64,000 nucleotides of DNA. It comes from Macrostomum lignano (lineage: Eukaryota). Location of the stretch: contig NIVC01000781.1 in the NCBI GenBank assembly GCA_002269645.1, positions 142,491 through 206,490 on the forward strand, written 5' to 3'. A program made the translations under genes and the position numbers. Below, piece by piece: positions 27,815-59,130 of this stretch (position 1 is the first letter of the stretch; each line of letters begins with the position of its first letter). Below the pieces are notes generated by a model. The model saw only the letters and a program-made list of their open reading frames with translations. It had not been told where the DNA came from and did no database searches.

Positions 27815-28678
27815 TCACATTCTCTCAATGATCAACGTCAATACAAACTCTTCACCGTTGAAATCAACGCCCATCCCATCTTCAGTCTCAAACTGTAGCA
27901 CAATCTCGTGAATCTCCTTATTACTCAATACAACTCTTTTCACTGGATTTGGTTTCTCTACCACCATCTGTCCTCCAGCTACAGAGTTGGAGATGTTGTA
28001 CAAAATATTAGTTCGCTTTCCCTTAAATACCCAATCAAGACTGAGATTAGTTCTGATTAGAATATTCAAACCCTTTACAATGTCTGCTATATTGGGTGCT
28101 AAGAATAAACCGCGTACACTTTCCCGGGCCATGATAACGGCCCCCGTCGCTTGAGTGACAGTCCGCGCCGCGGATTCTGCATTATAAACTTTCTTCTCGA
28201 ATCCCAATTCCCTATACCAAGTGTCATCTTTAAACTCAACCTCCGCATCTTTGTGAACTTGCATGACCACTCTCATTACAGTGAGGTCATAGGTTAGTTT
28301 TACAGGGAACAGTTTTTTATCTGGCTTACTCGCATCAGGTGTCTCAAAATGGCCTCTTTTAGTAAAGACGTTTTCTAGAAAGTAATTGTAGGTATCCACA
28401 CTTTGCGTGCTAACAGGGAATACCACAGGTTCTGCTGCTGCACCTTTCCATTTGTAATAAAACTTATTATTTGCTGCCGTCACATTGGGAACGTTTGACC
28501 AACCAGTGAAGTCGTTAAGATAGACATGGTAATTAGCACCTGGATCCAGGCGAATCGCCTTCTCTAATTTTTGAATAAATATCCCGTTTGAGTCATTAAT
28601 TCGCCCAGTTATTGTAATAGGAATGCTCTCCTTGGAGTGCGAAATAATATTATTTAGTCTTTCAGCAATCGCTTCTAT
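27815..28678 (-). CDS. Polinton A penton/minor capsid protein (start codon appears mutated to ATA)
   Basis: Frame stays open upstream of the track ORF: (I)EAIAERLNNIISH...AIRLDPGANYHVYLNDFTGWSNVPNV. The C-terminus VDFNGEEFVLTLIIERM parallels B penton YDFDGEEIFINLHVRQI. Confidence 0.7.
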   Translation of the reverse strand: MEAIAERLNNIISHSKESIPITITGRINDSNGIFIQKLEKAIRLDPGANYHVYLNDFTGWSNVPNVTAANNKFYYKWKGAAAEPVVFPVSTQSVDTYNYFLENVFTKRGHFETPDASKPDKKLFPVKLTYDLTVMRVVMQVHKDAEVEFKDDTWYRELGFEKKVYNAESAARTVTQATGAVIMARESVRGLFLAPNIADIVKGLNILIRTNLSLDWVFKGKRTNILYNISNSVAGGQMVVEKPNPVKRVVLSNKEIHEIVLQFETEDGMGVDFNGEEFVLTLIIERM

Positions 28679-28698
28679 TTTTTGTCCTAAAAAAATAT

Positions 28699-29275
28699 TT
28701 AAACTTTACTGGATGAATTGTTGATCATGTTAAGCTTCACCTTCCTCTCAAATGCATAGATAATGTACAGGTCCACGGGTGTTGCGACAGTCCTCTCAAT
28801 GTTAGTCACGATATTCACAGGGCTGTTATCAGTAGGCATTTGTCTGGCAGACACATCAGCGCCAAACATTGGATATAGAGTTCCATATTGAAGAGCAGTG
28901 ATAGCAATTCCGTTGTTCTCTTTCACAGCCAAGTCGACCAACTCGCTGTAAAATTTGCTAATCTTGTTCTGACTGAAATCTCCATTTTGTGGCAGTGCAG
29001 GGTAAAGATTATCACTGATTTCATGCTGAATGGACCGCACGTCTCCATGCATGTAGCGTATAATGCTATTTGGGTTTCTCATATTAATAATGATATACCT
29101 TGGATTGCTGCATGATCCCTCTTTAATGCAGATGTTTGTTCTAGTTTCGTTTCGCTCATCTCGACACATGTAGGCCGTGTATGCAACATCAATTTCCTTC
29201 TCTATTGCCTTGAGATAATCCGCTTTTAGTGCGGTCTTTGGCTCAATGACTTCCAAATACACGATTCCGGTGTAG
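28699..29275 (-). pseudogene. Polinton A major capsid protein, C-terminal half only (5'-truncated)
   Basis: LYPALPQNGDFSQNKISKFYSEL...LYPMFGADVS matches the MCP C-terminal pattern and B MCP; no N-terminal half upstream. Confidence 0.65.
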
Positions 29276-29279
29276 CTTC

Positions 29280-30975: not shown

Positions 30976-31011
30976 TAAATGATTTATTATTTAATTTTTT
31001 TTCATCATAGA

Positions 31012-31815
31012 AAAATGGACTTTTCAAACGACTTCAATCCTCACTGGACGCGTAATCAGATTAAGTTTTCTCATCACGAGTCAATCCCGAGTCACTTCAG
31101 ATGCATTGTTGTTGGTTCATCAGGTTCAGGTAAAACATTCAGAGTCTTTAACATGCTTCTTAGACCTGGCTTTATCGACTATGACACTCTGCACATCTAC
31201 TCTCCCACACTGTATCAAGATGAGTATAAAATGCTGATTTCTGGATTGCAAAACAAACTGAACAAAGAGGACATTATTCAATGTTTTAATAACCAACAAA
31301 ACCTTCCCAGTAACCCAGAAATGGTTGCTGCCGAATATGCAAAGCACCTTAAAGACAATGAAAAATGGCAGAACATCAAAGTGTTCACCTATGGAGATCC
31401 GCAGGCTGATCCAAAGACCAAACTTCTACCCCAACCAGATGAGCTAGAAAAGGGGAGAAAGCATTTGATCGTCTTTGATGATTGTATGACAGGCCCACAG
31501 AAGCAGATAGAAAACTATTTTACAAGAGGGCGACATAACAATTGTAATGTAATTTACATTGCACAGAACTGGTTCGAGCTCCCGAACAAAACAATTCGTG
31601 GGAACTGCAATCTGATTCTCCTGTTTCCAACCATTCCACAGGACAGGCTAAAAAGATTTTACAATGAGGTCATTGCGCCTGCCTATTTTATAAATTCAAC
31701 AAAAAACTCAAACAGAAAGATTTCACAAGAGGAATTCGTTAACCTCTGCTACGAAAAGTGGAACCAACCCTATCAGTTTGTCATGTTCAACAAGGAGAAA
31801 AGAACTGTAATTTAA
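31012..31815 (+). CDS. Polinton A A32/FtsK-HerA-like DNA packaging ATPase
   Basis: Walker A GSSGSGKT, Walker B LIVFDD, RGRH arginine-finger motif, YIAQ. Confidence 0.92.
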   Translation, partial: KMDFSNDFNPHWTRNQIKFSHHESIPSHFRCIVVGSSGSGKTFRVFNMLLRPGFIDYDTLHIYSPTLYQDEYKMLISGLQNKLNKEDIIQCFNNQQNLPSNPEMVAAEYAKHLKDNEKWQNIKVFTYGDPQADPKTKLLPQPDELEKGRKHLIVFDDCMTGPQKQIENYFTRGRHNNCNVIYIAQNWFELPNKTIRGNCNLILLFPTIPQDRLKRFYNEVIAPAYFINSTKNSNRKISQEEFVNLCYEKWNQPYQFVMFNKEKRTVI

Positions 31816-31831: not shown

Positions 31832-32593
31832 ATGTCTATTAATTTTGCAGGTGAATCCATTTCTGGCAACAACGCTCTTACATCAGCTCAAATATCCATC
31901 CTTGACAGGCGATATATCAACAGCGACGAAAAGATCCCAGAGATCAAACTGAATAAAAACAGACTGAAACAATTAGAGCGCTCCATGCACCAGTTGCAAA
32001 TAAACATGGAAGATCTTAGGCTTAAAGTAGCTAGGCAGAAGTTTGAAAGTGATAAGCTTTATGTACAGGTTGTACACGCAACTAATGAACTAAGGTCAAA
32101 AATAACTTCGATAGTCTCGCTAATCAACGGCTTGAGATCATCAGTTAATCTCCTGGGAAATTCCACTGATAGACGGATGCGTATTCTTGAAGGAGGGGTT
32201 TTCACAAACACAGCTAAAGTAAATAATTTAGAAGAGTTCATGAACCAGTCAACAGCGTTGCATGATAGAATTAAAGAAAACGTCGCAACCAACACAGGTA
32301 AAGTGAGGAATTTAGAAGAGTTCATGACTCAGTCAACAGCGTTGCATGATAGAATTAAAGAAAGACTTGCAGCATTAGAGAGAAAGGATGTATCACACAG
32401 TAGCTATCTAAACGGAATGTATAGCTCTTGGGGTAAAATACTAAGGAGGCTTGATCGTCTGGAGAGAACACTCAATCTTCGTGATATTGCTATTGATGAA
32501 GCAGAATCTACTGCTCGTCCGGTCATTTCTACAGATGAAATTATCAAATTTCATCAAAATCAAATCAAATCAAAAGAAAACAGATCTTTTTAA
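31832..32593 (+). CDS. Polinton A coiled-coil protein, putative fibre/spike
   Basis: N-terminal LDRRYINSDE resembles B fibre ADDRYINENE; internal duplication TNT(A/G)KVxNLEEFMxQSTALHDRIKE; same gene neighbourhood as B fibre. Confidence 0.5.
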   Translation: MSINFAGESISGNNALTSAQISILDRRYINSDEKIPEIKLNKNRLKQLERSMHQLQINMEDLRLKVARQKFESDKLYVQVVHATNELRSKITSIVSLINGLRSSVNLLGNSTDRRMRILEGGVFTNTAKVNNLEEFMNQSTALHDRIKENVATNTGKVRNLEEFMTQSTALHDRIKERLAALERKDVSHSSYLNGMYSSWGKILRRLDRLERTLNLRDIAIDEAESTARPVISTDEIIKFHQNQIKSKENRSF

Positions 32594-32636: not shown

Positions 32637-33356
32637 ATGGCCCAACAAAATTCTCTATACGATCAGTCTCAATACGCTGAACCTAAAATACCGACAGCAC
32701 CAAACTCAATGGCACCGAATTCGAACACACAAAGCCTGAATGCACCGAATCTGAATGCACCTCAATATGAGCAACAAAAACTCTACCCCATCATTTCTTG
32801 TAACTCTCAACAATTTCGATTGGTGGAGATTCAAAAAATGCGAGATGACATTGAAAAAAATATTTTCCACAACACAAAGAAAATTGAGCGCTATAACAGC
32901 CACTGTAAATTTTTCGACTACAGCAATATGATTCTAGGATCTGTGTCTGTTCTATCTGGATCTGCTGCGGCTGTCTCAACGTTGCCAGTCATCACAGCCC
33001 CAATCGCAATCCCGCTCAGCTCTGTGGGTGCTGCGTGTGGACTTATTTCAGCAATTACTGGAGCATTAGCGCGAAATAGGCGAAAAAAACTAAAGCAGCT
33101 ACAGGAGAAGCAAGTAAAAGAGAAAGGGGTGCACACATCAATCATAGGGTACATTTCAAGGGCAATCGAACATAAGTTCATTTCAGAGGATGAGTTCAAA
33201 ACCATTCAGGATCTTTATGAACAAACAATTCGAATGAACTTGAACATGGTCGGTACTGATGACATGAGTCAGTTGAGAAATGAACTCGAGAAAGTTCTTC
33301 AACATTATGCGGAAAGAAAGTCGGCAAGAAGGAGGGTGAGAAATGCGCCACAATGA
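32637..33356 (+). CDS. Polinton A conserved membrane protein (hydrophobic helical hairpin) with PTAP and LYP motifs
   Basis: KLYP...FRLVEIQ, then hydrophobic ILGSVSVLSGSAAAV...IAIPLSSVGAACGLISAITG; homologous to B 54231-54971. Confidence 0.7.
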   Translation: MAQQNSLYDQSQYAEPKIPTAPNSMAPNSNTQSLNAPNLNAPQYEQQKLYPIISCNSQQFRLVEIQKMRDDIEKNIFHNTKKIERYNSHCKFFDYSNMILGSVSVLSGSAAAVSTLPVITAPIAIPLSSVGAACGLISAITGALARNRRKKLKQLQEKQVKEKGVHTSIIGYISRAIEHKFISEDEFKTIQDLYEQTIRMNLNMVGTDDMSQLRNELEKVLQHYAERKSARRRVRNAPQ

Positions 33357-33360: not shown

Positions 33361-33762
33361 CTATGAAACACAGCCAAGAATAATTTCCTTGTAGGTCTTT
33401 CGTGTTTTGGTCATTGCATACAAAACAGTCATGCACAGCTCACCGCAAATATCACTGCTAAGACCTTGGAGAATAAAGTCTGAGCGATAAATTTTTTTAT
33501 TATTTTTCCCCTTCATATAATTTCTTAGCTCTTCTGGTACTGCCGTCCCATAGCTATCGAAGTAATAACACTTGTGCTTGCGATCGGGATCAATCACCCA
33601 GCAAACCCAATGAGATCCTGGCTTATCGGTGGTGTCAAAGTTCATGATGCCGCATTCTTTTCTTAGAGGAAAATCAGGCAGAGTGTCCCTCGTAAATATT
33701 CCTCTAAAGTTTGGGATTTCCAGTTCGTTAGCCAAATCTTCAAGAAAGTTATTTGTCGTCAT
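33361..33762 (-). CDS. Polinton A adenain-family cysteine protease
   Basis: GSHW (His), YFDSYG (Asp), Q-x5-CG (Gln/Cys) catalytic motifs intact. Confidence 0.92.
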   Translation of the reverse strand: MTTNNFLEDLANELEIPNFRGIFTRDTLPDFPLRKECGIMNFDTTDKPGSHWVCWVIDPDRKHKCYYFDSYGTAVPEELRNYMKGKNNKKIYRSDFILQGLSSDICGELCMTVLYAMTKTRKTYKEIILGCVS

Positions 33763-33932: not shown

Positions 33933-36900
33933 TTATCTCCAGTGCCCGAACGGTAGACTGTTAATATTGTCATCAAAAATGAATCTCTTGTTATCTGCAC
34001 CCGACAGTCCAATCTTCTTTTGCTGAATTGTGTGAATAATATGGTTTTTAGATTGTAGCTTTGAGAACTCATGTGATGTCTTTTTGTTGCAATTCAAGGC
34101 GTCCCTGTATTCAGCTTCATTAATTTCCTTCCTAACCACACGTTTCGGAATTCCCTTTGATTTTTTTATTGGGTCTGACGACTCACATTTTACAAAATAG
34201 GACTTTGCTCTCAACCCAATGAATTCCGTGATTATGTCACCAGCAATCTCGTCCTTCATTTTCCCAATCACTTTCTTGTTAGTAGCGTCAAACACTTGAT
34301 CGCCATTCTGTGTCCTGAAAGATTCATCATACTCAGACAAGTCAAACAAATCTTTTTGCTGCAGCATGTCCTGATAAATGTCTTCTGTTTGAATGTCCAT
34401 AATAAAACTGTCTGTGTCAGTGTACAAGAGTTTCATTTTATCCTTGTACTGCTGCTTCATGCCATAGAAGAACTGGTACATCAGACGTTTTGATTCGTCG
34501 AGAACAATGACACCTGTATAGATCTGCTTGCGCAGTGTCACCTTGGTTTTGTAAAATATGATCACACCCAAGTAGCTATTAAAGATATGGAGTTCTTTGA
34601 ATGTTGGCTTTGACATATTTGCTTGAATAACAGCAGGCTCTGATGAGGTAACAAGTTTCAGGTTTGTTCTTTTCCGCTCATTCTCAAGAGTCTTGCCATA
34701 GACAGAGTTGTTGGCCAACTTAAAGAGGTTCTTGTCAAACTCGTTGGTTGCTTTGGTCCTAAACTGGGTGTTCTTATCAATGTAGGGTTTCATCCACGCT
34801 TCCTCTGTAAATGTAAGAGCCCTGTGAACTTTGGTGACCCTGCAACCAAGTGAGATAAAATACTGAAGCAGTTTGTAATGGATTTTGTAACGTGTCTTGT
34901 TGTTTAGATTCTGTGTTAGTTTCTCTGTATGTTCTTTTTCTGTTCCTGACAGGCGCCAAGTTCCATTGGGAGTTTCGATTATTTTCGGACACTTGATGTT
35001 CCCTGGGAAGGGTGGAAAGTCAGGGAAATAGTCGTGAAGCTCTGGTGGAATGTAAACATCAACCTCATAAATGGCAGCCAATGAAAAGTCCCATTTGAAT
35101 TCTGATGAGGGTAGCCATCGAAAATCTCTAACTGGAAGATCTTGACTCATCGCCCACCCGTAGAGATTATTAGCGTCCAAGTAAGTAATGTAGTTTGAGG
35201 GCTGCTCCTTATTGTAAGATTCAATGTAGGGATTGTTCGCTTTTGCATACCTGTTAACACAAATTGAGATCCCCCCTCGCTTTGACGATTCGACAAAATT
35301 GTACATTTCAATATCTGTAAGAAGTTCAATGTACCAATCTGGATCTTGATCCCATTTCATTTTAAGCAAAGATTCCCAGCTAGTGGCAGGCAGAGACACA
35401 TAATGTGCTGGATCGAAGCCATATGCTGTGTACCAGGTGTATCTGAAAGTTTCAAACACATCGGCCAGCAGAAACACATCTGTGAAGAGGTAAAGCAGGT
35501 GATACTGGAAGAAGTTTTGACAATTAAAGTAATTATAGACATGCTTCGCGTGCTCATAGTCTTTGTCAGAGATTCCAGAGTCTGTTAGCTTTGAAAAGAA
35601 CTTCTCCTGTGGTGGTAAACCTTCTTCAAATACGTGATAACGAGTAATATTCTCATAGGGGTAGAAGCCTTTCTTTCTTAAAAGTTTAAATGATTCATCA
35701 GTGTTGTTAATTTTACTTGCAAATATCTTTGTATATGTACATTGTTCATCTTTTAGATTCTTGCTTAGTTCGTCTAGACTGGCAGCTAGAAATTGATATG
35801 AATCCTTCAGTCTTATTTTACCTTTACTGTTACCCGAATTATCCTGTTTAATATCAACACACTTAAACTTCTCCTTGTTCTCTGCGATGCAGTCAAGGTG
35901 TATGTCTGGAATCATGCCGATTTTTTCAACTATTAAATGCATGTCATAGTTCTTTGCGTTGTGACAAAATATCGTTAGATCATGAATGTTGGATTTTAGC
36001 TTTAGATTACAGGTGTTATGCGCTGCACCTCTAAATTTCCCAGTAAAGTGGCAGTGGTCCCTAACGGTTGGGTTTTTAATATCAGTGCAAGTTAACTGTT
36101 TCCTACAGATGTAGCAATGAGTTGCTGATAGGAAATTGCTTTCATCCTCCTCAGACATAATTATTGGAACAGGCTGAAGGGTGCTAATTACTCTTTGCAA
36201 CTCTAACATTCTGGCAATAAACTGCTCCACACACTGGTCTCCAAAGAAATAATTATACTCATCAAGTCCTTTTGTATTAATAAAGGCATATGCTACTGAA
36301 TTGAGGACATGTCTTTGAGTTTGAGTTTGTTTTTGAGTTTCTGGCATGATTGAGCATTCGAAATCAGCATATACAACAAATGGGAGCTTCTCCATCTTGT
36401 GATAGTTCTTAAAACGGAGATACTTTTCTTCAGCTGAAGGAAGAGAGCAGTTGGTCGGGTGATCCTCACATGATAATTCATGCTCTGCTAGTTTTTCAAT
36501 GCGCTCAGGTCCACTGTAATGCTTAAGGCACAAGCGGCAGATGGCAACAGCCTCGTGATGATTATTCAACTGCTTGTGAATGAGTATTGAAAGATCTTTA
36601 ATCCAAACATAGTGAGCCTCCTCTAGTAAATTACCAATCACTAGAAGATCAACCTCAGTCCGCCTTTTCCCCTCAGGATCTAAAACGTCTTTGCTACATC
36701 TGACCGGTTGAACTTTCTCAGTTTTTTCACTCCACTCAAAGACTGTGATTCTAATTTTGTTATTAAACACTTCTTCTAGTTTTGGAATCTGAGAGATCGC
36801 CAAGCCTCCTTTGTCAAACCTGATCCCCTTCTTTTCACATTCGATAAGATAGTACTTGAAATAATTTTGATAATTTGAGGTTCTTTCGGGGTGGTGAGGG

Positions 36901-37329
36901 ACACTATCATGATGAAGTGCAGAAAGAACTGCCCATAGAGCACAGCAATTGTCTTTATTTTTAACATTTATGCAAGCTTTTTTGCCGGCTAGCTTATGTG
37001 GGAGCTCTATATAAGAGGAGGCTTTAAGTGGGTCATATTTCATGACCATGACAGTAGCTCTTTGAATCCCTCCCACGACCCATCCGGAACCTCTGGATGT
37101 AAACGCTTCAATTTTCTTAGTGACATCTTGAAGGAAAGGATCCAGCGTGTCTGTAGGGGTGAATGGCTTTGCCTTTGTTGTCATGTAATACTCGAGATGC
37201 TCAGTGGGTTTCGCAGGCATATAAAACGCAATCTTGAATGATATCTGTAGTTTAAAAGTCTTGCGTGTTTTAAGTGTGTGATCAACAACTGATTGGATGC
37301 TGTCTTTATAGTCGTAGATGTTTGCGGTG
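33933..37329 (-). CDS. polB: Polinton A protein-primed DNA polymerase B, 5'-truncated by the Polinton B insertion
   Basis: YADFE, HNAKNYD, YLDANNLYG, KLANNSVYGK, YTDTDS, and an EndoVII-like CYIC...HCH...CN segment. The frame stays open from the track start (37220) up to the insertion at 37329. Confidence 0.95.
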
Positions 37330-38093
37330 AGTAGTATAGGAAAAGTAGGTTTGAGCGCAACCCATTTTGAAAAATCACAAAAAACAGATAAAAATCGACT
37401 AAAAACAGGTGAAAATTGTCTGAAAACAGTGATTTTAGTGATTTTTCAAAAGTTTTGAAAAATTGCTTTTTGCGCGATTTCGTGAGTAAAACCACAAGAA
37501 ATTTTTGATTCGTGGGTTAAAATAACCTATTTTCAGGTTTCATCATTTCAAAACTAGCATCAAATTTAATAATAGTCTTTTCTCCCATTGCATAACGCCC
37601 TTCAATAAGCCAATCTTACTAGCTTTGCTTTTAACGATCAGTCAGCTACCATCTATGCATAAAAATGGTCCACTCGAGGCATACAATGCTTTTACAAAAG
37701 TCAATAATTTGCTCCTGCACATTCGCTTTGTCCCGAGGCTTTGAAATGGCTTTAATGCTGTTCTAGATTTGTACTTAAAGATAATAGAAGACATTCAAGA
37801 ACATGGAGCGCTAATTTAAATTTTTCGTGGCAAGCATACTCGACTACTAGAGCACTAACCGCAGCACTCAACATTTCTATTGGCTGCCAAAATTTCTGCC
37901 AAAACCAAAATTTTTGCCAAAATTTCTGCCAAAAAGTGTTTGGTTTTGGCATCCAATAGGAGTGGCTCGTGCAAATCTTTTGTGTTCACCCTCTATCTAG
38001 CTGTAAAAAAAGACATAAAGTGGGCCACGCAAGTTACAAACGAACAATGCTCGCGACCCTACCTACGGACGATTTCACTAACCCTTTTCTAAA
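37330..38093 (+). repeat. Polinton B left TIR, part 1 (continues at 47260-47395)
   Basis: Near-identical reverse complement of 63231-63997. Confidence 0.95.
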
Positions 38094-38709
38094 TCCTATA
38101 TACTAAAAATGGTCTGTCTGTGTCTATCTATCTATGTGATAGATTAGAGAAAAAATGGCTGGACCGATTTTGTTCGAACTTGCACTGTTCGATCAGAAAT
38201 TTTCCCGTGACTGTACATGCATCGTGGCTAAGAAATTGCTCGATGCTAAAGGCATTAAATATTCGAAAAACATGCTTTTTTGCAAAGGTCAAGCAGCTCT
38301 TTCGACTTGAAATGCATTGTAAGAATGCTAGAGAAAAAACTGACTGGTTGAATTCTGATTCTGAAATGATTGCATCATAACTGAATTGTAACTCCGACTT
38401 GAATTGAAAATGCAGTGTGGAAGCATAGCACCAGACTTGATTTAAATTGCGTAACCATATTGTTAACTGATACTGACTGACTGAGAAACTGATTATGTCA
38501 TAACTGTTTCGTGTGATTTACTCTATGCTTGGATTTTAAAGTGTTGAATTATATAAGTGCAAAATTTGATGTTATCAAAACGATGAGAGCTAGCCTAGAG
38601 GTGAACAAACTGAACTGCTAAATGCAGCGACGATGGTTCGAATTTTCATAGAGTATAATTTTTTTAATTAAAGCTTTTCAACGTCAGGAAAACTAAAAGA
38701 CTTTTTAAA

Positions 38710-41700
38710 AAGAAGCGTCATGTAAAAATCATAGATGCGTCATTTAAAAAAATCATAGAAGCGTCATGTAAAATATCATAGAAGCGTCATGTAAACAATC
38801 ATAGAAGCGTCATGTAAACAATCATAGAAGCGTCATGTAAACAATCATAGAAGCGTCATGTAAACAATCATAGAAGCGTCATGTAAACAATCATAGATGC
38901 GTCATTTAAAAAATCATAGAAGCGTCATGTAAAATATCATAGAAGCGTCATGTAAACAATCATAGAAGCGTCATGTAAACAATCATAGATGCGTCATTTA
39001 AAAAATCATAGAAGCGTCATGTAAAATATCATAGAAGCGTCATGTAAACAATCATAGAAGCGTCATGTAAACAATCATAGAAGCGTCATGTAAAAAATCA
39101 TAGAAGCGTCATGTTAACAATCATAGAAGCGTCATGTAAAAAATCGTAGAAGCGTCATGTAAAATATCATAGAAGCGTCATGTAAACAATCATAGAAGCG
39201 TCATGTAAAAATCATAGAAGCGTCATGTAAAATATCATAGAAGCGTCATGTAAAAAAATCATAGAAGCGTCATGTAAAAAATCGTAGAAGCGTCATGTAA
39301 AATATCATAGAAGCGTCATGTGAACAATCATAGAAGCGTCATGTAAAAATCATAGAAGCGTCATGTAAAAAATCATAGAAGCGTCATGTAAAAAAATCAT
39401 AAAAGCGTCATGTAAAAAATAATAGAAGCGTCATGTAAAAAATCAGAGAAGCGTCATGTAAACAATCATAGAAGCGTCATATAAAAATCATAGAAGCGTC
39501 ATGTAAACAATCATAGAAGCGTCATATAAAAATCATAGAAGCGTCATGTATAAAATCATAGAAGCGTCATGTAAAGATCATAGAAGCGTCATGTAAGCAA
39601 TCATAGAAGCGTCATGTAAAAATCATAGAAGCGTCATGTTAACAATCATAGAAGCGTCATGTAAAATATCATAGAAGCGTCATGTGAACAATCATAGAAG
39701 CGTCATGTAAAAATCATAGAAGCGTCATGTAAAAAATCATAGAAGCGTCATGTAAAAAAATCATAGTAGCGTCATGTAAACAATCATAGAAGCGTCATGT
39801 AAACAATCATAGAAGCGTCATGTAAACAATCATAGAAGCGTCATGTAAACAATCATAGATGCGTCATTTAAAAAATCATAGAAGCGTCATATAAAAATCA
39901 TAGATGCTTCATTTAAAAAATCATAGAAGCGTCATGTAAAATATCATAGAAGCGTCATGTAAACAATCATAGAAGCGTCATGTAAAAAACCATAGAAGCG
40001 TCATGTTAACAATCATAGAAGCGTCATGTAAACAATCATAGAAGCGTCATGTAAACAATCATAGAAGCGTCATGTAAACAATCATAGAAGCGTCATGTAA
40101 ACAATCATAGATGCGTCATTTAAAAAATCATAGAAGCGTCATATAAAAATCATAGATGCGTCATTTAAAAAATCATAGAAGCGTCATGTAAAATATCATA
40201 GAAGCGTCATGTAAACAATCATAGAAGCGTCATGTAAAAAATCATAGAAGCGTCATGTTAACAATCATAGAAGCGTCATGTAAACAATCATAGAAGCGTC
40301 ATGTAAACAATCATAGAAGCGTCATGTAAACAATCATAAAAGCGTCATGTAAACAATCATAGATGCGTCATTTAAAAAATCATAGAAGCGTCATGTAAAA
40401 AATCGTAGAAGCGTCATATAAAAATCATAGAAGCGTCATTTAAAAAATCATAGAAGCGTCATGTAAAATATCATAGAAGCGTCATGTAAAATATCATAGA
40501 AGCGTCATGTAAACAATCATAGAAGCGTCATGTAAACAATCATAGAAGCGTCATGTAAAAAATCGTAGAAGCGTCATATAAAAATCATAGAAGCGTCATT
40601 TAAAAAATCATAGAAGCGTCATGTAAAATATCATAGAAGCGTCATGTAAACAATCATAGAAGCGTCATGTAAACAATCATAGAAGCGTCATGTAAAAAAT
40701 CGTAGAAGCGTCATGTAAAATATCATAGAAGCGTCATGTGAACAATCATAGAAGCGTCATGTAAAAATCATAGAAGCGTCATGTAAAAAATCATAGAAGC
40801 GTCATGTAAAAAAATCATAGAAGCGTCATGTAAAAAATAATAGAAGCGTCATGTAAAAAATCAGAGAAGCGTCATGTAAACAATCATAGAAGCGTTATAT
40901 AAAAATCATAGAAGCGTCATGTAAACAATCATAGAAGCGTCATATAAAAATCATAGAAGCGTCATGTATAAAATCATAGAAGCGTCATGTAAAGATCATA
41001 GAAGCGTCATGTAAGCAATCATAGAAGCGCCATGTAAAAATCATAGAAGCGTCATGTTAACAATCATAGAAGCGTCATGTAAACAATCATAGAAGCGTCA
41101 TGTAAAATATCATAGAAGCGTCATGTAAACAATCATAGAAGCGTCATGTAAACAATCATAGAAGCGTCATGTAAACAATCATAGAAGCGTCATGTAAACA
41201 ATCATAGAAGCGTCATGTAAACAATCATAGAAGTGTCATGTAAACAATAATAGAAGCGTCATGTAAACAATCATAGAAGCGTCATGTAAACAATCATAGA
41301 AGCGTCATGTAAACAATCATAGAAGCGTCATGTAAACAATCATAGATGCGTCATTTAAACAATCATAGAAGCGTCATATAAAAATCATAGATGCGTCATT
41401 TAAAAAATCATAGAAGCGTCATGTAAAATATCATAGAAGCGTCATGTAAACAATCATAGAAGCGTCATGTAAAAAATCATAGAAGCGTCATGTTAACAAT
41501 CATAGAAGCGTCATGTTAACAATCATAGAAGCGTCATATAAAAATCATAAAAGCGTCATGTAAACAATCATAGAAGCGTCATGTAAACAATCATAGAAGC
41601 GTCATGTAAACAATCATAGAAGTGTCATGTAAACAATCATAGAAGCGTCATGTAAACAATCATAGAAGCGTCATGTAAACAATCATAGAAGCGTCATGTA

Positions 41701-42560
41701 AACAATCATAGAAGCGTCATGTAAAAAATCGTAGAAGCGTCATATAAAAATCATAGAAGCGTCATTTAAAAAATCATAGAAGCGTCATTTAAAAAATCAT
41801 AGAAGCGTAATGTAAACAATCATAGAAGCGTCATGTAAAAAATCATAGAAGCGGCATTTCAAAAATCATAGGAGCGTCATGTAAACAATCATAGAAGCGT
41901 CATGTAAAAAATCGTAGAAGCGTCATGTAAAATATCATAGAAGCGTCATGTAAACAATCATAGAAGCGTCATGTAAAAATCATAGAAGCGTCATGTAAAA
42001 TATCATAGAAGCGTCATGTAAAAAAATCATAGAAGCGTCATGTAAAAAATCGTAGAAGCGTCATGTAAAATATCATAGAAGCGTCATGTAAACAATCATA
42101 GAAGCGTCATATAAAAATCATAGAAGCGTCATGTATAAAATCATAGAAGCGTCATGTAAAGATCATAGAAGCGTCATGTAAGCAATCATAGAAGCGCCAT
42201 GTAAAAATCATAGAAGCGTCATGTAAACAATCATAGAAGCGTCATGTAAACAATCATAGAAGCGTCATGTAAAATATCATAGAAGCGTCATGTAAACAAT
42301 CATAGAAGCGTCATGTAAACAATCATAGAAGCGTCATGTAAAAAATCATAGAAGCGTCATGTAAAAAATCATAGAAGCGTCATGTAAAAAATCATAGAAG
42401 CGTCATGTAAAAAATCAGATAAGCGTCATGTAAACAATCATAGAAGCGTCATGTAAACAATCATAGAAGCATTATGTAAACAATCATAGAAACGTCATGT
42501 AAAAATCATAGAAGCGTCATGTAAAAAATCATAGAAGCCTTATTTAAAAACTAATGAAAG
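38710..42560. repeat. 23-bp satellite (ATCATAGAAGCGTCATGTAAACA)n inside Helitron copy 1
   Basis: Period 23 over ~3.85 kb. Confidence 0.97.
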
Positions 42561-43480
42561 TGTCATTTAAAAAATTAGGAAGCATCATGGTAGAATAAAA
42601 GAAGCATCATGGTAGAATAAAAGAAGCATCATGTCAGACATGAAGGGTGTCATGTAAAAATTAAATGCAGCTATAATGCTGTGCTGGGGAGAAAAACTGA
42701 GACGTCAAGGCTCTCAGAGAATAACTGAGATTATGGGTGGGGGGGGGTTTCTGAAATTCTGTGATGTCAAAGCAAAAGTCAGAAGCTACTTCAAAGTTCA
42801 TGTACTTTACTCAATTTTTTATTGCATTCTTTGTTGGCTCGCCACGGGGGGGGCGCTGATAGAAGAAGAGTCATGTAAAAAATAAAAGTAGCACTACGTA
42901 TACATAAAAGAAAAGTCATGTCGAAGTTAAAAGATTCATTTGGGAATTGCTACGAGGTCAAAGCTTGGTGGAAATCGTTATAGTGCTGTGATTCTTAAAG
43001 AAGGAATCACTAAAATGTCAAGGCTTAGGGGAGAAGAATTGCTGAGATTTCAAGGCTTTAGGTTGGGTTAAAGTTAGGTTTAGGTCAGGTGTGGGTTGAG
43101 GGTTATATTTTATCGGGTTTCAAGGTTAACGGGGGATTTTTCAGATTTCAAGGTTTATGGGGGCCATCGCTGACATGTTAAGGCTTACGGGGGGAATAGC
43201 TGAGATGTCAAGGCTCACGGGGGTATAAATAAGATTTCAAGGCTAAAGTCAGAAGCTACATGTAGTTTATTGAAAAATTTTTATTACATTATTTGATGCC
43301 TCCTCAGGGGAGGGATCGCTGATAAAAAAGCGTAATGTAAAAAATAAAAGAAGCTTCATTTCGAAGTTAAGAGATTCATTTGGGAATCCCTACGATGTCG
43401 AGGCTTGCAGGGAATCACTATAATGCTGTAGTAGTGCTATAATGACTCTTAGAGAGAATTATTACTGAAATTTCAATGCT

Positions 43481-43547
43481 TTAGGGTTAGGTTAGGGTTA
43501 GGGTTAGGGTTAGGGTTAGGGTTAGGGTTAGGCTAGGGTTAGGGTTA
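43481..43547 (+). repeat. Interstitial (TTAGGG)n inside Helitron copy 1
   Basis: About 11 near-perfect units. Confidence 0.9.
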
Positions 43548-44344
43548 GAAGGTTGACAGATATTTTTAGATTTCCAAGGCTTATTGGGGGCATTGCTGAG
43601 ATGTCAAGGGGGGGGAATTACTGACATGTCAAGGCTTACAAGGTTTGACAAGAGATTTTTTAAGATTTCAAGGATACATGTAGCTTATTAAAAAAAATGT
43701 GTATTGCATTTCTTTGGCTCCCCAACGGGGGGCGTAGATTGCTAGTCCAATATACTAAAAATGGTCTGTCTGTGTCTATCTATCTATCTATGTGATTGAT
43801 TAGAGAAAAAATGGCTGGACCGATTTTTTTCAAACTTGCACTGTTCGATCTGAAATTTTCCCGTGACTGTACATGCATCGTGGCTAAGAAATTGCTCGAT
43901 GCTAAAGGCATTAAATATTCGAAAAACATGCTTTTTTGCAAAGGTCAAGCAAACTTTTCGACTTGAAATGCATTGTAAGAATTCTAGAGAAAAAAAAACT
44001 GACTGGTTGAATTCTGATTCTGAAATAGATTGCATCATAACTGAATTGTAACTCCGACTTGAATTGAAAATGCAGTGTGGAAGCGTAGTATCAGATTTAA
44101 CTGATACTGACTGACTGAGAAATTGATTATGTCATAACTGCTTCGTGTGATTTACTCTATGCTTGGATTTAAAAGTGTTGAATTAAATAAGTGAAAAATT
44201 TGATGTTATCAAAACGATGAGAGCTAGCCTAGAGGTGAACAAACTGAACTGCTAAATGCAGCGACGATGGTTCGAATTTTCATAGAGTATAATTTTTTTA
44301 ATTAAAGCTTTTCAATGTCAGGAAAACTAAAAGACTTTTTAAAA

Positions 44345-46100
44345 AGAAGCGTCATGTAAAAATCTTCTAGAAGCGTCATGTAAAAAATCGTGGAAGCGTC
44401 ATTTAAAAAATCATAGAAGCGTCATTTAAAAAATCATGGAAGCGTCATATAAAAATCATAGATGCGTCATTTAAAAAATCAAAGATGCGTCATTTAAAAA
44501 ATCATAGAAGCGCCATGTAAACAATCATAAAATCGTCATTTAAAAAATCATAAAAGCGTCATGTAAAAATCATAGAAGCGTCATGTAAACAATCATAAAA
44601 GCGTCATGTAAAAAATCATAGAAGCGTCATGCAAACAATCATAGAAGCGTCATATAAAAATCATAAAAGCGTCATGTAAACAATCATAGAAGCGTCATGT
44701 AAACAATCATAGAAGCGTCATGTAAACAATCATAGAAGTGTCATGTAAACAATCATAGAAGCGTCATGTAAACAATCATAGAAGCGTCATGTAAACAATC
44801 ATAGAAGCGTCATGTAAACAATCATAGAAGCGTCATGTAAACAATCATAGAAGCGTCATGTAAACAATTATAGAAGCGTCAAGAAAAAATCATAGAGGCC
44901 TCATTTAAAAAACATAGAAGCGTCATTTAAAAAATCATAGAAGCGTCATGTAAAAAATCAGAGAATCGTCATGTAAACAATCATAAAAGCGTCATTTCAA
45001 AAATCATAGAAGCGTCATATAAAAATTATAGATGCGTCATTTCAACAATCATAGAAGCGTCACAAAAAAATCATAGAAGCGTCATGTAAAAAATCATAGA
45101 AGTGTCATGTAAAAATCGTAGAAGCGTCATGCAAAAAATCATAGAAGCGTCATGTAAAAAATCATAGAAGCGTCATGTAAACAATCATAGAAGCGTCATG
45201 TGAAAAATCGTAGAAGCGTCATTTTAAAATCATGGAAGCATCATTTAAAAAATCATAGAAGCGTCATGTAAACAATCATAGAAGCGTCATGTAAACAATC
45301 ATAGAAGCGCCATGTAAAAAATCATAGAAGCGTCATCTAAAAAATCATGGAAGCGTCATTTAAAAAATCATAGAAGCGTCATGTAAAAAATCATAGAAGC
45401 GTCATGTAAAAAATCATAGAAGCGTCATGTAAACAATCATAGAAGCCTCATGTAAACAATCATAAAAGCGTCATGTAAACAATCATAGAAGCGTCATGTA
45501 AAAAATCAGAGAAGCGTCATGTAAACAATCATAGAAGTGTCATGTAAACAATCATAGAAGCGTCATGTAAACAATCATAGAAGCGTCATGTAAACAATCA
45601 TAGAAGCGTCATGTAAAAAATCAGAGAAGCGTCATGTAAAAAATCATAGAAGCGTCATGTAACAATCATAGAAGCGTCATGTAAAAATCATAAAAGCGTC
45701 ATGTAAAAATCATAGAAGCGTCATGTAAACAATCATAGAAGCGTCATTTAAAAAAGTCATAAAAGCGTCATGTAAAAAATCATAGAAGCGTCATGTAAAC
45801 AATCATAGAAGCGTCATGTAAACAATCATAGAAGCGTCATGTAAAAAATCATAGAAGCATCGTGTAAACAATCATAGAAGCGTCATGTAAACAATCATAG
45901 AAGCGTCATGTAAACAATCATAGAAGCGTCATGTAAAAAATCAGAGAAGCGTCATGGAAACAATCATAGAAGCGTCATGTAACAATCATAGAAGCGTCAT
46001 TTAAAAAATCATAGAAGCGTCATGTAAACAATCATAGAAGCGTCATATAAAAATCATAGAAGCGTCAAGAAAAAATCATAGAAGCCTCATTTAAAAACTA
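44345..46100. repeat. 23-bp satellite inside Helitron copy 2
   Basis: Same unit as 38710-42560, ~1.75 kb. Confidence 0.97.
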
Positions 46101-46992
46101 ATGAGTGTCATTTAAAAAATTAAGAAGCATCATGGTGGAATAAAAGAAGCGTCATGTCAGACATGAAGGGTGTCATGTAAAAATAAATGCAGCTATAATG
46201 CTGTGCTGGGTAGAAAAACTGAGACGTAAAGGCTCTCAGAGAATAACTGAGATTACGGGGGGGGGGGGGGTTCTGAGATGTCAAAGCAAAAGTCAGAAGC
46301 TACTTCAAAGTTCATGTACTTTACTCAATTTTTTATTGCATTCTTTGTTGGCTCGCCACGGGGGGGGGTCGCTGATAGAAGAAGAGTCATGTAAAAAATA
46401 AAAGTAGCACTATGTATACATAAAAGAAAAGTCATGTCGAAGTTAAAAGATTCATTTGGGAATTGCTACGATGTCAAAGCTTGGTGGAAATCGTTATAGT
46501 GCTGTGATTCTTAAAGAAGGAATCACTAAAATGTCAAGGCTTAGGGGAGAAGAATTGCTGAGATTTCAAGGCTTTAGGTTGGGTTAAAGTTAGGTTTAGG
46601 TCAGGTGTGGGTTGAGGGTTATATTTTATCGAGTTTCAAGGTTAACAGGGGATTTTTTAGATTTCAAGGTTTATGGGGGCCATCGCTGACATGTCAAGGC
46701 TTACGGGGGGAATAGCTGAGATGTCAAGGCTCACGGGGGTATAAATGAGATTTCAAGGCTAAAGTCAGAAGCTACATGTAGTTTATTGAAAACTTTTATT
46801 ACATTATTTGATGCCTCCTCAGGGGAGGGATCGCTGATAAAAAAAGCGTAATGTAAAAAATAAAAGAAGCTTCATGTCGAAGTTAAGATATTCATTTGGG
46901 AATCCCAACGATGTCGAGGCTTGCAGGGAATCGCTATAATGCTGTAGTAGTGCTATAATGACTCTTAGAGAGAATTACTGAAATTTCAATGC

Positions 46993-47062
46993 TTTAGGGT
47001 TGGGTTAGGGTTAGGGTTAGGGTTAGGGTTAGGGTTAGGGTTAGGCTATAGGGTTAGGGTTA
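46993..47062 (+). repeat. Interstitial (TTAGGG)n inside Helitron copy 2
   Basis: About 11 near-perfect units. Confidence 0.9.
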
Positions 47063-47259
47063 GAAGGTTGACAGATATTTTTAGATTTCCAAGGCTTATT
47101 GGGGGCATTGCTGAGATGTCAAGGGGGGGGAATTACTGACATGTCAAGGCTTACAAGGTTTGACAAGAGATTTTTTAAGATTTCAAGGATACATGTAGCT
47201 TATTAAAAAAACGTGTATTGCATTTCTTTGGCTCCCCAACGGGGGGCGTAGATTGCTAG

Positions 47260-47395
47260 TTATGTATCTTAAAAATGGAACAAATAGCAGGAGAAGTTCT
47301 CCTCAAAGCAATTTTTATATTGTGACTCAGCTTTAACGTCGTGCGAAACCCACACTGAGTGAAGCGTATGGTCAAATAGGCTCTCGCAGGAACTC
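47260..47395 (+). repeat. Polinton B left TIR, part 2
   Basis: Reverse complement of 63095-63230; resumes exactly where part 1 stops (CTAAA|TTATGTATC). Confidence 0.92.
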
Positions 47396-47710
47396 TAAAA
47401 ATTGGTCAAGGACAGCTTCCATTACACAAAGTTAAATTTAATTCACGTAAATCAAAATTGCTATAATGAAAATTAATTATAAAAAATTAAAAAAGATAAC
47501 AGCTCCTTAAAATCCGTTTTTAGGATACACTTCGCATAACTTATGCAAATAATAATAATGGTTTTGTATTTTAAATATTGAAGTAGTGATTATTAAAACA
47601 GTAACAAAAAGTCCTCAAACGCCTATGAAGAACAAAATTAAAACATTAGAGCAATTTATTAATATTGACAAATTAGTCCATGATCGCCACAAGTCATCAA
47701 TCATCTAGTT

Positions 47711-48148
47711 TTAGTTAGCTGATGAAGCAGCAGTACCTCGGTTGTCAGCAGTGCCTTGGATGTCAGCAGTGCCTCGGTTGTCAGCAGTGCCTCGGTTGTC
47801 AGCAGTGCCTCGGTTGTCAGCAGCGATCTCATAGGGTGGTGGAAGGCTATCATCTTCAGTATCCAAATCACCAATCGCTTGCATGGCTTGAGCTTGGTTT
47901 TGATAGGATAGTGCAATAGCTTGCATGCTTTTTCTTTTTGCCACATTTTCCTTCAGAAGCTTCAGGAGCTTATCCTCCTCCGTAAAGGACTTGAATGTAT
48001 CTAAACCTTGTAGCTTATTGATTAGTCTCTCAGAACCTAGATCTGCAAATATAGTTAATGGCATGAGCCTTCGAATCTTTTGCTTTGTGAGTTCGAATTC
48101 CTTTCGATGATCCCTATATCTCTTGCGAAGTTCCTTTTCGGATGGCAT
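47711..48148 (-). CDS. Polinton B hypothetical protein with PPPY motif and (ADNRGT)n tail
   Basis: 145-aa ORF; 18-bp coding repeat. Confidence 0.55.
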   Translation of the reverse strand: MPSEKELRKRYRDHRKEFELTKQKIRRLMPLTIFADLGSERLINKLQGLDTFKSFTEEDKLLKLLKENVAKRKSMQAIALSYQNQAQAMQAIGDLDTEDDSLPPPYEIAADNRGTADNRGTADNRGTADIQGTADNRGTAASSAN

Positions 48149-48855
48149 GTCTATTAAAGCTTTTTATTGTTGCAATGAATTTGGAGAGAATTATCAGCCA
48201 TCTTTCCAAATTCATTCCTGTATTAATATTATGTGAAAATACAAAAGCAGCGCATAACCTCAATTCTCATTGGTGTCTCATTGATGACAACCAATGAGAA
48301 AGCGACACCGGGTGAATGGAATGCAACTTTGCAGGCTCATGCCAGATGCAGAAAAAATTCTATCCACATGAGTCAGAATTGTAGTTACTTGAGATGCATG
48401 GCATCGCACTGCACAATGCACACTGAAAGAAACTATGTTCCTTTTTTCTTTAAAGCAGAATGACTCAACATTCTTTCTAGCTTTTCACATCAAGAATGAA
48501 GCAAAGCAACTAACCTAACCCTAACAGTTTAGCAGTTGAGTCAATAAGAATTTATTGTTCCTTTATCAATAGGTTTTGAATATCAGCATGCTGCAGCAGG
48601 AATTGAGCACCTCTTAAACCCCAACTCTAAAGCACGGCCATGGCAGTTTTTTCTCTATTTTCATGACTCAATGCGCATGTAAGAAGTCGCTTAGGTGGCT
48701 TGATAAAAACCCGCTTTAGTTTTGGAAGCAATACAACACACGTTTATCAGACAGACTAAAGCAAACAGAGTGAACATATAAATCACACAACTCAGCAACA
48801 ACGAAAAGGTAAGAAATAAGTGTTCTTGTGTTTATTTTGATACCAAATAGTTATA

Positions 48856-49491
48856 ATGCCCTACATTTTAGAATCCCGTATGGAGGCAGCAATGGCATCA
48901 TTCGAATCCGACCTCGATAGTCTTATCAAGGAGATTTTTTGTAGTGGGGATTTAAAGCATTGTAAGAAATGGATAGGAGAATATAACAAGGTTGCTAGAA
49001 AATTTAATAGGAAGAAGTTTGCTATTCCAACTTTTCGAGGTAGATTGGAGAGAGTGGACAAGACAAAGGAACGAATAGCAGAAGCTGCTAAAATACTGCG
49101 GGATTCGATGGAGCATCAAGAGCCGGGAGAGATTAATGAATTTATGGACGGAGAATATCAATTTCAGGATGCAATTACAGAACTTAATTCCATTGATAAA
49201 ATGATAAACGAGCTACAGTGCCGGGGCTTGCAGTATGGAATTAAGTCTGGTCAGATATTAATAAGAATGAAGCTTTCATTGAGTGACGAGGAGTATAAAG
49301 TTTTTTTGTCTAGACTACGCTTTAAGTCCGCGTGGGGGAACTATTTAGTCCGAGTGGCTCGTCTAAGCACAGCACATCCAATTCTGTGGCGTTGTGGCAT
49401 CTCACTGTTTCGCCTACGTTCTATAATCAAGTACGCTGAGAAAGCCCTGGAGATGCTGGAGGATGAGGAGGAAGATGCACTTCTGATCTGA
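48856..49491 (+). CDS. Polinton B hypothetical protein (possible DUF3102-like helical domain)
   Basis: 211-aa ORF; GQILIRMK...EYKVFL...WGNYLVRVARL pattern recognised from memory only. Confidence 0.55.
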   Translation: MPYILESRMEAAMASFESDLDSLIKEIFCSGDLKHCKKWIGEYNKVARKFNRKKFAIPTFRGRLERVDKTKERIAEAAKILRDSMEHQEPGEINEFMDGEYQFQDAITELNSIDKMINELQCRGLQYGIKSGQILIRMKLSLSDEEYKVFLSRLRFKSAWGNYLVRVARLSTAHPILWRCGISLFRLRSIIKYAEKALEMLEDEEEDALLI

Positions 49492-49554
49492 TGAAAATCT
49501 TATTGCGCGCGTTGTGAATCATAACATCTGACTCTCATTATGCTGACTATTCTT

Positions 49555-49960
49555 ATTCACATCGAATACTGCAGTATCTGGTTCTTTTTTGCTCGTTGCT
49601 TTTTCACATCGAATACTGCAGTATCTGGTTCTTTTTTGCTCGTTGCTTTTCACATCGAATACTGCAGTATCTGGTTCTTTTTTGCTCGTTGCTTTTCACA
49701 TCGAATACTGCAGTATCTGGTTCTTTTTTGCTCGTTGCTTTTCACATCGAATACTGCAGTATCTGGTTCTTTTTTGCTCGTTGCTTTTCACATCGAATAC
49801 TGCAGTATCTGGTTCTTTTTTGCTCGTTGCTTTTCACATCGAATACTGCAGTATCTGGTTCTTTTTTGCTCGTTGCTTTTCACATCGAATACTGCAGTAT
49901 CTGGTTCTTTTTTGGTCGCTGCTTTTTCACATCGAATACTGCAGTATCTGGTTCTTTTTC
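49555..49960. repeat. 46-bp tandem repeat upstream of pPolB
   Basis: Period 46 (49621, 49667); no spacers. Confidence 0.95.
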
Positions 49961-50069
49961 TGCCTATTGTAATATCGCTTATACATTTCTAATTGCTTAA
50001 TCCTGTGGATGCCACAATAAATTTATAACGTCATTACATAATTTTCCTGCTAAATTTATTTTATAAAAA

Positions 50070-53897: not shown

Positions 53898-53899
53898 GT

Positions 53900-54205
53900 T
53901 TAAAAAACCAAACAATTCAATTGCTTAAGAAGTTTCTTGCGCTGATCATTAAACTCAACATACTTCCTGATCTCTTTTATTTTTTTAACTAACTTGTCGA
54001 TTTCATCTTCAATAAATGCTTCTGCAAAAACAATAGCAGTTTCAAGAAAACATTTGCGATCACTTAATTTATCAATATATCCATAATCCGGTTCTATTAT
54101 TCCACAATGTGTACGCACCTCCCTAAAGTTATTTATTTGTATTTCTCTATCAATGCGCTTTATTTCATCTTGGTATGCATTTAGGAGAACTTTTATTGCA
54201 GCCAT
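53900..54205 (-). CDS. Polinton B hypothetical 101-aa protein
   Basis: ORF with AAAATG start, convergent with pPolB. Confidence 0.5.
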   Translation of the reverse strand: MAAIKVLLNAYQDEIKRIDREIQINNFREVRTHCGIIEPDYGYIDKLSDRKCFLETAIVFAEAFIEDEIDKLVKKIKEIRKYVEFNDQRKKLLKQLNCLVF

Positions 54206-54230
54206 TTTCTAGAAAAAAAATTATACAATA

Positions 54231-54971
54231 TTAATTGTAGGGAGGTGCACTTGGAGCATTTGATTGAAGATTGAGTGTTGCCGAGTACTCTTTTGGCTTA
54301 TCAGCTAGACCCAATTTTTCTCTCAGATCTTTTTCTAGTAATTCCTTTTTAATTTTTTCCTTCGCTGAATGACCAAGTCTACTCTCTTTGAGGATTTTAT
54401 CAACGACTTCCGAATGGTTAACTTCTTCAGGCGCAACACAGGCGTCTAACAATTGATCTCTTTTTTCTCTGTATTCTGAATAAATTGCAGCAGCTGCTTG
54501 AACCTCTTCAAGAGTTAATCTATAATCATCAACTGCTTTTTGGGAGTAAATATACAATCTCTCTCTGTATTGATTTGCCAGATCTCTGAGAACAATGTAT
54601 TTTGCCTTCTGCTTTTGGCAATGAATTTTCACAGTTGCAAACAACGACGTGGATTTTACAGCTTCAAAACCACTCATTGCCCCGATTACTACTCCAATAA
54701 CTAAGGGATTCAATGTCAGTATCGATGTTGCTATGCCAATTCCTGTAGCAGCCAAGAGACTTACATTTCCTGTCACAATGTTGATCCAATTTATCCTGCT
54801 ACTTTGCCGTTTGTACTTTTTTACCTTTTTGCTATAAATTGTAAGATCTTTAGTAATGCATTCAATACTGCCTTTGATTTCACCCTTTCTCTGATTGAAA
54901 TAGTCCCGCTCCCTCAAATCTGCTTCATGCAGCTCAACCACAGGATAGATGTGTTCATTTTTTTCATTCAT
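54231..54971 (-). CDS. Polinton B conserved membrane protein with YPx3L and PSAP motifs
   Basis: Likely true start MNEKNEHIYPVVEL (TAAAAATG at 54971); hydrophobic hairpin NIVTGNVSLLAATGIGIATSILTLNPLVIGVVIG; C-terminal APSAPPYN. Confidence 0.7.
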   Translation of the reverse strand: MNEKNEHIYPVVELHEADLRERDYFNQRKGEIKGSIECITKDLTIYSKKVKKYKRQSSRINWINIVTGNVSLLAATGIGIATSILTLNPLVIGVVIGAMSGFEAVKSTSLFATVKIHCQKQKAKYIVLRDLANQYRERLYIYSQKAVDDYRLTLEEVQAAAAIYSEYREKRDQLLDACVAPEEVNHSEVVDKILKESRLGHSAKEKIKKELLEKDLREKLGLADKPKEYSATLNLQSNAPSAPPYN

Positions 54972-54973
54972 TT

Positions 54974-56806: not shown

Positions 56807-56815
56807 TTTTAACAC

Positions 56816-57606: not shown

Positions 57607-57608
57607 TT

Positions 57609-58333: not shown

Positions 58334-58335
58334 TT

Positions 58336-59109: not shown

Positions 59110-59130
59110 TTAAAAAAAGAAAAAATGACC

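Follow-up and report, generated by a model that had tools for sequence, protein, structure and literature searches.

Late-domain-type motifs in the tails of a Polinton hairpin protein family suggest recruitment of host ESCRT

Whether Polintons make particles at all, and how they would move from cell to cell, is a long-standing open question. The window analyzed here, 64,000 nucleotides of the Macrostomum lignano genome (contig NIVC01000781.1, positions 142,491 to 206,490), contains a small gene that bears on it. In a preliminary description, its product was read as a conserved Polinton membrane protein with TSG101- and ALIX-binding motifs of the kind used in viral budding, and ESCRT-dependent budding or quasi-envelopment of presumed non-enveloped capsids was proposed. 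We asked whether the motifs are more than chance, whether the protein could recruit ESCRT, and to what end. The gene and its landmarks are as follows.

32637..33356, + strand: element A hairpin protein (P0001), 239 aa (open reading frame translation, AlphaFold2, genome matches)
32691..32702, + strand: PTAP, TSG101-UEV-type motif, residues 19-22 (sequence and family enrichment)
32781..32795, + strand: LYPII, ALIX-type YPx-hydrophobic motif, residues 49-53 (sequence and family enrichment)
32814..32822, + strand: FRL, residues 60-62, where the conserved core helix begins; R61 is present in 95% of the family (family alignment)
32919..33071, + strand: uncharged Gly/Ala/Ser-rich hairpin, residues 95-145 (51 residues), with basic flanks on both sides (sequence, AlphaFold2)
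33171..33197, + strand: conserved helix-loop-helix turn, residues 179-187, family pattern D-G/N-x-I-S-x-x-E-F (alignment, AlphaFold2)

The PTAP first described at residues 19-22 is exact in the translation. KLYP likewise lies upstream of FRL (residues 48-51), but the full motif, LYPII, eight residues N-terminal of FRL, has I at the position where canonical YPxL has L, and strict YPx(1-3)L is unmatched. AlphaFold2 predicted a disordered tail at residues 1-54 (pLDDT 50-59; mean for the protein 83.5), followed by a helix at 55-114, a 6-residue turn at 115-120, and helices at 121-179 and 184-235; a coiled coil lies between the motif-bearing tail and the uncharged hairpin. The hydrophobic hairpin of the preliminary description was thus recovered as an uncharged stretch and a two-helix model, but its hydrophobicity is only moderate: one 19-residue window above 1.6 on the Kyte-Doolittle scale was found in 116 of 147 aligned members, two such windows in 29, and none in 2. 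For this reason we treat the membrane hairpin as putative. A hairpin with basic flanks fits membrane insertion with both tails in the cytosol, and because both tails of such a hairpin would face one side, a PSAP would be usable from either end of the protein. The D-G/N-x-I-S-x-x-E-F turn is the best-conserved core motif and resembles the second half of an EF-hand loop; calcium binding by it is doubtful, since the first and third loop positions are non-acidic. A sequence search of solved structures with the hairpin protein gave no match below E 0.8, and Foldseek found none at E<=0.001; fold comparison returned generic coiled coils, the best Z in VIA (11.7) being one of many ties. Contigs from four sequencing runs span the entire element, but these runs are only presumed to be RNA and are uninformative on transcription.

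The gene sits among putative virion genes of one Polinton (element A) that is interrupted by a second (element B).

27815..28705, - strand: element A probable penton (assigned from its location and from 24% identity with a gene of a sister family; no Pfam match)
28699..29277, - strand: element A major capsid gene, 3' part, the 5' part being lost in this copy (sister copies)
30979..31815, + strand: element A packaging ATPase, Pox_A32 (Pfam)
31832..32593, + strand: upstream neighbor of the hairpin gene, a coiled-coil and presumably fiber-like protein with RYINxxE near its N terminus
33361..33762, - strand: element A adenovirus-type protease (Pfam)
33933..37220, - strand: element A protein-primed DNA polymerase B (Pfam)
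37330..63997, unstranded: element B, between terminal inverted repeats with AGT ends (inverted-repeat comparison)

The gene set that marks a Polinton was found across the two elements and their relatives: polymerase, ATPase and protease in A, integrase in B, and capsid in the sisters of A. A 428-aa capsid gene was present in all four sister copies of element A examined (its double-jelly-roll match, at E 5.7e-5, is weaker than the curated cut-off) and integrase-like genes in three of the four. Element B encodes a polymerase B and an ATPase, and its integrase is fused to a phospholipase A2-like domain. It lies directly upstream of the element A polymerase, where sister A copies continue to an integrase; the contig stops 3 bases past B, before the far end of A. 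Several observations on these elements stand on their own. Element B is nested in A, and inside its left end a 23-bp tandem repeat extends over ~9 kb (~38600-47200). Its phospholipase A2-like domain and integrase form one 452-aa frame (61347-62705, - strand); in sister A copies they are separate genes on opposite strands. The gene adjoining the capsid gene (29499-30449, + strand) has a glutamine/proline repeat whose length varies among copies, and this copy is without the N-terminal part present in sister copies. The element A major capsid protein itself has LYPAL, a YPxL match, at residue 327 of 428 (28699-29169, - strand; L022:5021-6304, L025:3651-4934).

In three Polinton families of this genome (A, B and a third, C), the hairpin gene adjoins the protease, together with capsid and ATPase genes. 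RYINxxE recurs near the N terminus of its neighbor in all three (31832-32593, + strand; 55837-56379, - strand; L062:1984-4026), and the fiber-like neighbor in family C carries an F5/8 type C carbohydrate-binding (lectin) domain; these neighbors may be exchangeable fiber genes with a common anchor motif. Two scans of public viral contigs and a phage collection gave no hairpin-gene locus. The alignments were too diverse for pattern search, and the gene context therefore comes from the three families in the M. lignano genome.

To measure motif enrichment, we used a core-only profile of eight sequences from which every motif column had been excluded. Searched against 1.84 billion cluster representatives, it gave 541 matches at E<=1e-3, the best 150 of which were used; removal of eight (one 2011-aa repeat protein and seven partial matches) left 142 relatives, one of them (P0011) a profile seed. 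Among these 142, drawn from the best 150 of 541, P(S/T)AP occurred in 49 (46 in the N-tail, 0 in the core and 3 in the C-tail), against 0.55 expected from tail shuffles (maximum 4 in 1000 shuffles) and 0.32 from whole-protein shuffles (maximum 3 in 200 shuffles). The pattern [LIVM]YPx[LIVM] occurred in 95 (94 in the N-tail, 0 in the core), against 0.85 (maximum 4) and 1.41 (maximum 6), respectively, and strict YPxL in 71, against 1.5-2.1 in shuffles; the +3 position of the 110 YP sites in the family is L in 71, I in 16 and V in 14. Both motif classes were found together in 38 relatives. Enrichment over composition-matched shuffles, the test proposed in the preliminary description, therefore held for these two classes but not for PPxY, which was seen in 7 tails of the 142 relatives against 2.5 in tail shuffles (maximum 10). 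Lacking enrichment over tail shuffles, PPxY was rejected as a third late-domain motif, and the APPY of element B was set aside because it does not match PPxY. Single PPxY occurrences, PPPY and PPGY, are present in two further element B proteins (47711-48148 and 57646-58176, both - strand).

Nearly all motifs fall in the tails, although these make up only ~3,300 of 28,300 residues. Within the 118 tails of at least 12 residues, each position of the motifs appeared constrained: P-x-A-P had S in 31 cases, T in 15 and another residue in 3; P-(S/T)-A-x ended in P in 46 of 48; hydrophobic-x-P-x-hydrophobic had Y in 95 of 103; and hydrophobic-Y-x-x-hydrophobic had P in 95 of 96. Eleven anagrams of PSAP were tried, and only overlapping ones were found (SAPP 15, PPSA 3, APPS 1, against 31 for PSAP). 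The shuffles and anagrams exclude a chance origin of the motifs. As expected of ESCRT late domains, P(S/T)AP and YPXnL-type motifs lie, above chance, in a tail that is predicted to be disordered and accessible. A further profile, which did include the motif columns and whose result we therefore did not count as a test, gave 117 close relatives; of the 115 retained, 70 had P(S/T)AP and 106 the YP motif. Atlas points to homologs in molluscs and Nucleocytoviricota, on few records; of 10 homolog clusters looked up, 9 carried no name and one was a "hypothetical protein".

We also observed relatives without the motifs. Neither motif was found in any tail of 35 of the 142 (11 with tails of at least 12 residues and 24 with shorter ones; some of the 24 perhaps have miscalled starts). 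The C-tails of motif-bearing members were longer than those of motif-less ones (median 45 versus 25-30; p 6e-8, ignoring kinship), and this longer C-tail is a candidate contact for cargo, with the C-terminal helix as a candidate contact for the capsid.

The motifs are mobile. P(S/T)AP and the YP motif stand 17:17 in either order, and their distance from the core varies from 7 to 48 residues. In a quick core tree, in which 62 of 139 inner branches were unresolved, a minimum of 9 switches of order was needed for 42 rows, 12 switches between S and T for 49 rows, and 30 gains or losses of P(S/T)AP for 118 rows; the three C-terminal P(S/T)AP cases fell in three separate places. Common descent does not explain the enrichment of the motifs, because their order, spacing, S/T choice and presence change repeatedly. 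Position independence and interchange, which are hallmarks of late domains, are thus seen here through natural variation.

Retention was also evident among genome copies. Across the 764 Mb of the M. lignano genome we counted at least 151 matches to the element A core and examined 60 of them (ranks 1-20 and 40 further down). The tail was intact in 44; the other 16 were frameshifted or without a start. LYPxI is retained in all 44 intact tails, which belong to two distinct types, and each of them also has between one and four P(S/T)AP; in 19 there is tandem expansion to 2-4 P(S/T)AP. The host TSG101 and ALIX genes each lie on three contigs (L030, L031, L032 and L034, L035, L036), so the assembly contains triplicated regions and element copy counts are inflated to some extent.

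The divergent element B homolog, said beforehand to carry such motifs at other positions, does so.

54231..54971, - strand: element B homolog, probable start M47 of the listed open reading frame 54231-55109 (start matched to relatives)
54930..54950, - strand: IYPVVEL, YPx3L-type, near the probable start (sequence)
54243..54254, - strand: PSAP, three residues from the C-terminal end (sequence)
L058:7868-8521, L059:3302-3955 and L062:4412-5065: family C motif-less hairpin gene (genome loci)

The A and B proteins are 21% identical over 98 aa (E 5e-7). The start in B is probably the second methionine, because relatives start there. LYPx3L or IYPx3L is present in all five close relatives of the element B protein and a C-terminal PSAP in four of the five; among 20 genome copies examined, the YP motif was kept in 20 and a terminal P(S/T)AP in 18. 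Family C is different. Its 218-aa hairpin protein, ~39% identical to the element B version, has a 9-residue tail with neither motif in the seven loci examined, and a search for a hidden upstream motif exon in three frames, 450 bases upstream at 3 loci, found none. Counted by eye, family C accounts for ~100 of the 150 genome matches listed. The motifs are therefore dispensable for multiplication of a family in a genome, and the core must do something in their absence, since this abundant family carries the core alone. On one contig, family C has two protease-fiber-hairpin blocks ~5 kb apart, whose fiber-like genes differ (509 and 682 aa).

The host encodes the partners that such motifs would need. 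M. lignano has TSG101 UEV genes (E 1e-44 to human TSG101) and ALIX-type V-domain exons. In the host protein, the residues that we take to line the UEV pocket are kept at T92, Y68, N69, M95, P139 and V141 and differ at Y63 and F142. Given the motif enrichment, we consider recruitment of ESCRT, through TSG101 and ALIX, very probable for the hairpin protein. The non-canonical position in the element A YP motif leaves some room for the motifs to bind a non-ESCRT proline-motif reader or a viral partner, or to be by-products of proline-rich tails. We think this highly improbable: chance is excluded by the shuffles and anagrams, and both motifs match two known ESCRT ligands, down to the S/T and YPxL/YPx3L alternations (PMC8402826).

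What ESCRT would be recruited for is less certain, and known systems offer a guide. Retroviral late domains (PTAP and YPXnL in HIV-1 p6; PSAP and LYPAL in MLV) comprise the same two classes in one disordered segment, and their pairing, interchange of position and YPxL/YPx3L alternation are described (PMC8402826); in retroviruses, however, they sit on the capsid precursor, whereas here a hairpin protein distinct from it carries them. Among known systems, orbivirus NS3/NS3A comes nearest in layout and motif logic, as an analogy. In bluetongue virus, which is non-enveloped, TSG101 is bound by the PSAP of NS3, and this motif drives virus release without lysis (PMC6949946); Polinton capsids are likewise presumed to be without a lipid envelope. 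The likeness extends to a protein of ~200-240 aa here with N-terminal late domains, a coiled coil, a basic patch and a two-helix hydrophobic segment. In NS3, however, the partner of PSAP is PPRY and a glycosylated loop separates the two membrane helices, whereas in the Polinton family the partner of P(S/T)AP is YPxL and the helices are linked by a turn of ~6 residues. We found no firm case for homology to NS3: the Pfam model Orbi_NS3 (PF01616) matched 1 of 147 members at E 0.002, the Atlas score was 0.75, NS3 was absent among the 50 matches listed in each of two viral fold searches, and the PPxY and lumenal glycosylated loop expected of NS3 did not hold for the family. Toxoplasma GRA14 is also a membrane protein whose late-domain motifs engage host ESCRT, as proposed here, but they serve uptake at the vacuole rather than exit, so such motifs need not mean particle budding; its motifs drive release of virus-like particles yet are dispensable for its natural job (PMC8700025).

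The core of the protein suggests other uses. SLATT (2TM) proteins of PLVs, adintoviruses and giant viruses likewise have a helix-hydrophobic hairpin-helix core and a Polinton context, and SLATT is labeled on adintovirus maps (PMC8502044, Fig. S2). At E<=0.01, NCBIfam SLATT_1 matched 35 of 147 members (best 2.7e-7) and SLATT_4 matched 10, all as sub-threshold similarity; Pfam SLATT_5 and SLATT_1 matched 1 of 147 each, and the element A protein had no SLATT match at that threshold in Pfam or NCBIfam. SLATT-annotated giant-virus proteins recurred in both viral fold searches. The PADLOC model LeoBC matched 72 of 147, more than the SLATT models, so the similarity may be that of hairpins in general; and the two-membrane-helix layout of SLATT is mirrored by a predicted helical hairpin, but only 29 of 147 members have two strongly hydrophobic windows. 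Overall, the core appears weakly SLATT-like. PLV SLATT proteins have been hypothesized to be entry pores for endosomal escape (PMC12220804), and a preprint proposes that such proteins act in abortive infection or in exit by lysis (10.64898/2026.10.13.758929); late domains are not mentioned in the parts of those accounts that were available, and in the available part of 10.64898/2026.06.19.733378 SLATT appears only in figure keys. The adintovirus names GasderminX, Cupiennin and SLATT (Starrett et al., PMC8502044) and the vertebrate Maverick names PW, PZ and PM (Barreat and Katzourakis, PMC8097293) may bear on the naming of the hairpin family; 10.1101/2025.02.07.637071, in its available part, only uses these names, and that of PMC11296320 holds nothing on the hairpin protein. 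No gasdermin family was among the Pfam matches listed for the hairpin family and the elements.

The family could accordingly be read as a SLATT-like pore or lysis protein whose motifs direct the protein itself to endosomes or extracellular vesicles, so that its toxicity is limited or timed, while capsids exit by lysis. The SLATT matches and the suggested abortive or lytic roles agree with this, as do the motif-less members, whose shared core implies an ESCRT-free job. We nevertheless consider it unlikely, as a pore is putative for every member of the family, and the 2-4 P(S/T)AP of 19 out of 44 copies and the two classes in 38 of 142 relatives resemble budding proteins, although these are compatible with self-sorting too. 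Alternatively, the protein might be carried in the particle and insert in the endosome membrane, where ALIX/ESCRT-I would help the genome reach the cytosol. Endosomal escape has been hypothesized for the PLV proteins, the gene lies among virion genes, and the ALIX-type motif is the commoner (95 versus 49 of 142 relatives, from the best 150 of 541). Tails inside an endosome, however, would be out of reach of cytosolic ESCRT unless translocated, a phospholipase A2-like gene for entry is already present in these elements, and inspection by eye found no protease-site motif like those of neighboring core proteins; we regard a role in entry as quite unlikely.

The best viral fold matches for both models were the invertebrate iridovirus proteins S6DF61, A0A5B8RH66 and A0A068QKD3, all uncharacterized and compared here by their cores; these homologs are 25-26% identical to a typical family member (E 2-4e-8). 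They bear on a further reading, in which ALIX/ESCRT-III is recruited at the nuclear envelope so that capsids assembled in the nucleus can cross it, as in herpesvirus nuclear egress, on which a review involving ESCRT is said to exist. Nuclear assembly, as in adenoviruses, is expected of Polintons, and the ALIX-type motif dominates. Yet P(S/T)AP is strongly selected, although TSG101/ESCRT-I is chiefly cytosolic and endosomal, and the homologs occur in iridoviruses, which complete assembly in the cytoplasm; nuclear exit is in our judgment very unlikely. Iridovirus budding through ESCRT has been reported, the ESCRT-binding proteins there being those of a frog virus (PMC4880917).

We favor an exit mechanism in which the hairpin protein would insert in a host membrane with both tails facing the cytosol, the tails would recruit TSG101 via P(S/T)AP and ALIX via YPx(L/I/V), and assembled capsids, perhaps contacted by the C-terminal helix, would bud from the cell without lysis, as with orbivirus NS3. 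In its favor are the enrichment and mobility of the motifs, their retention in 44 of 44 intact element A tails, the virion-gene setting, and the host TSG101 and ALIX genes. Against it are the 35 of 142 motif-less relatives, the motif-less high-copy family C, the unenriched PPxY, the I for canonical L in the element A copy, and the moderately hydrophobic hairpin. By analogy, we give about an even chance to the motifs serving to let capsids out, be it at the cell surface or at the endosome, and the whole chain, from hairpin protein and membrane through TSG101/ALIX recruitment to capsid budding, is our best explanation but one on which we are evenly divided. Of the exit proposal in the preliminary description, ESCRT recruitment therefore stands as very likely on the enrichment, whereas capsid exit stays conjectural, with family C carrying no motifs. 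More tentatively, and with somewhat less than even expectation, many animal Polintons may be quasi-enveloped, with the hairpin protein as an NS3-like exit factor, common to invertebrate iridoviruses, that bridges capsids to TSG101 and ALIX.

Two reviews reportedly mention both polinton and ESCRT, the latter once each. A literature search with coverage of few subscription journals gave nothing tying Polintons to late domains or SLATT to ESCRT, in line with the earlier statement that no such role was known to be assigned to Polintons, and nothing on Polinton budding was among the matches listed in broader searches. Maverick particles are reported to be unobserved so far (PMC8097293), which counts against the exit mechanism. 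Two independently selected ESCRT-type signals provide a specific and cheap handle on particle formation and movement, with named host partners and residues. If the exit mechanism is true, the difficulty of seeing particles would be explained, as vesicles would conceal them; the SLATT-like viral protein group common to Polintons and iridoviruses would have its first mechanistic lead; and elements could pass from soma to germline, and horizontally, by traveling within host membrane from one living cell or host to another.
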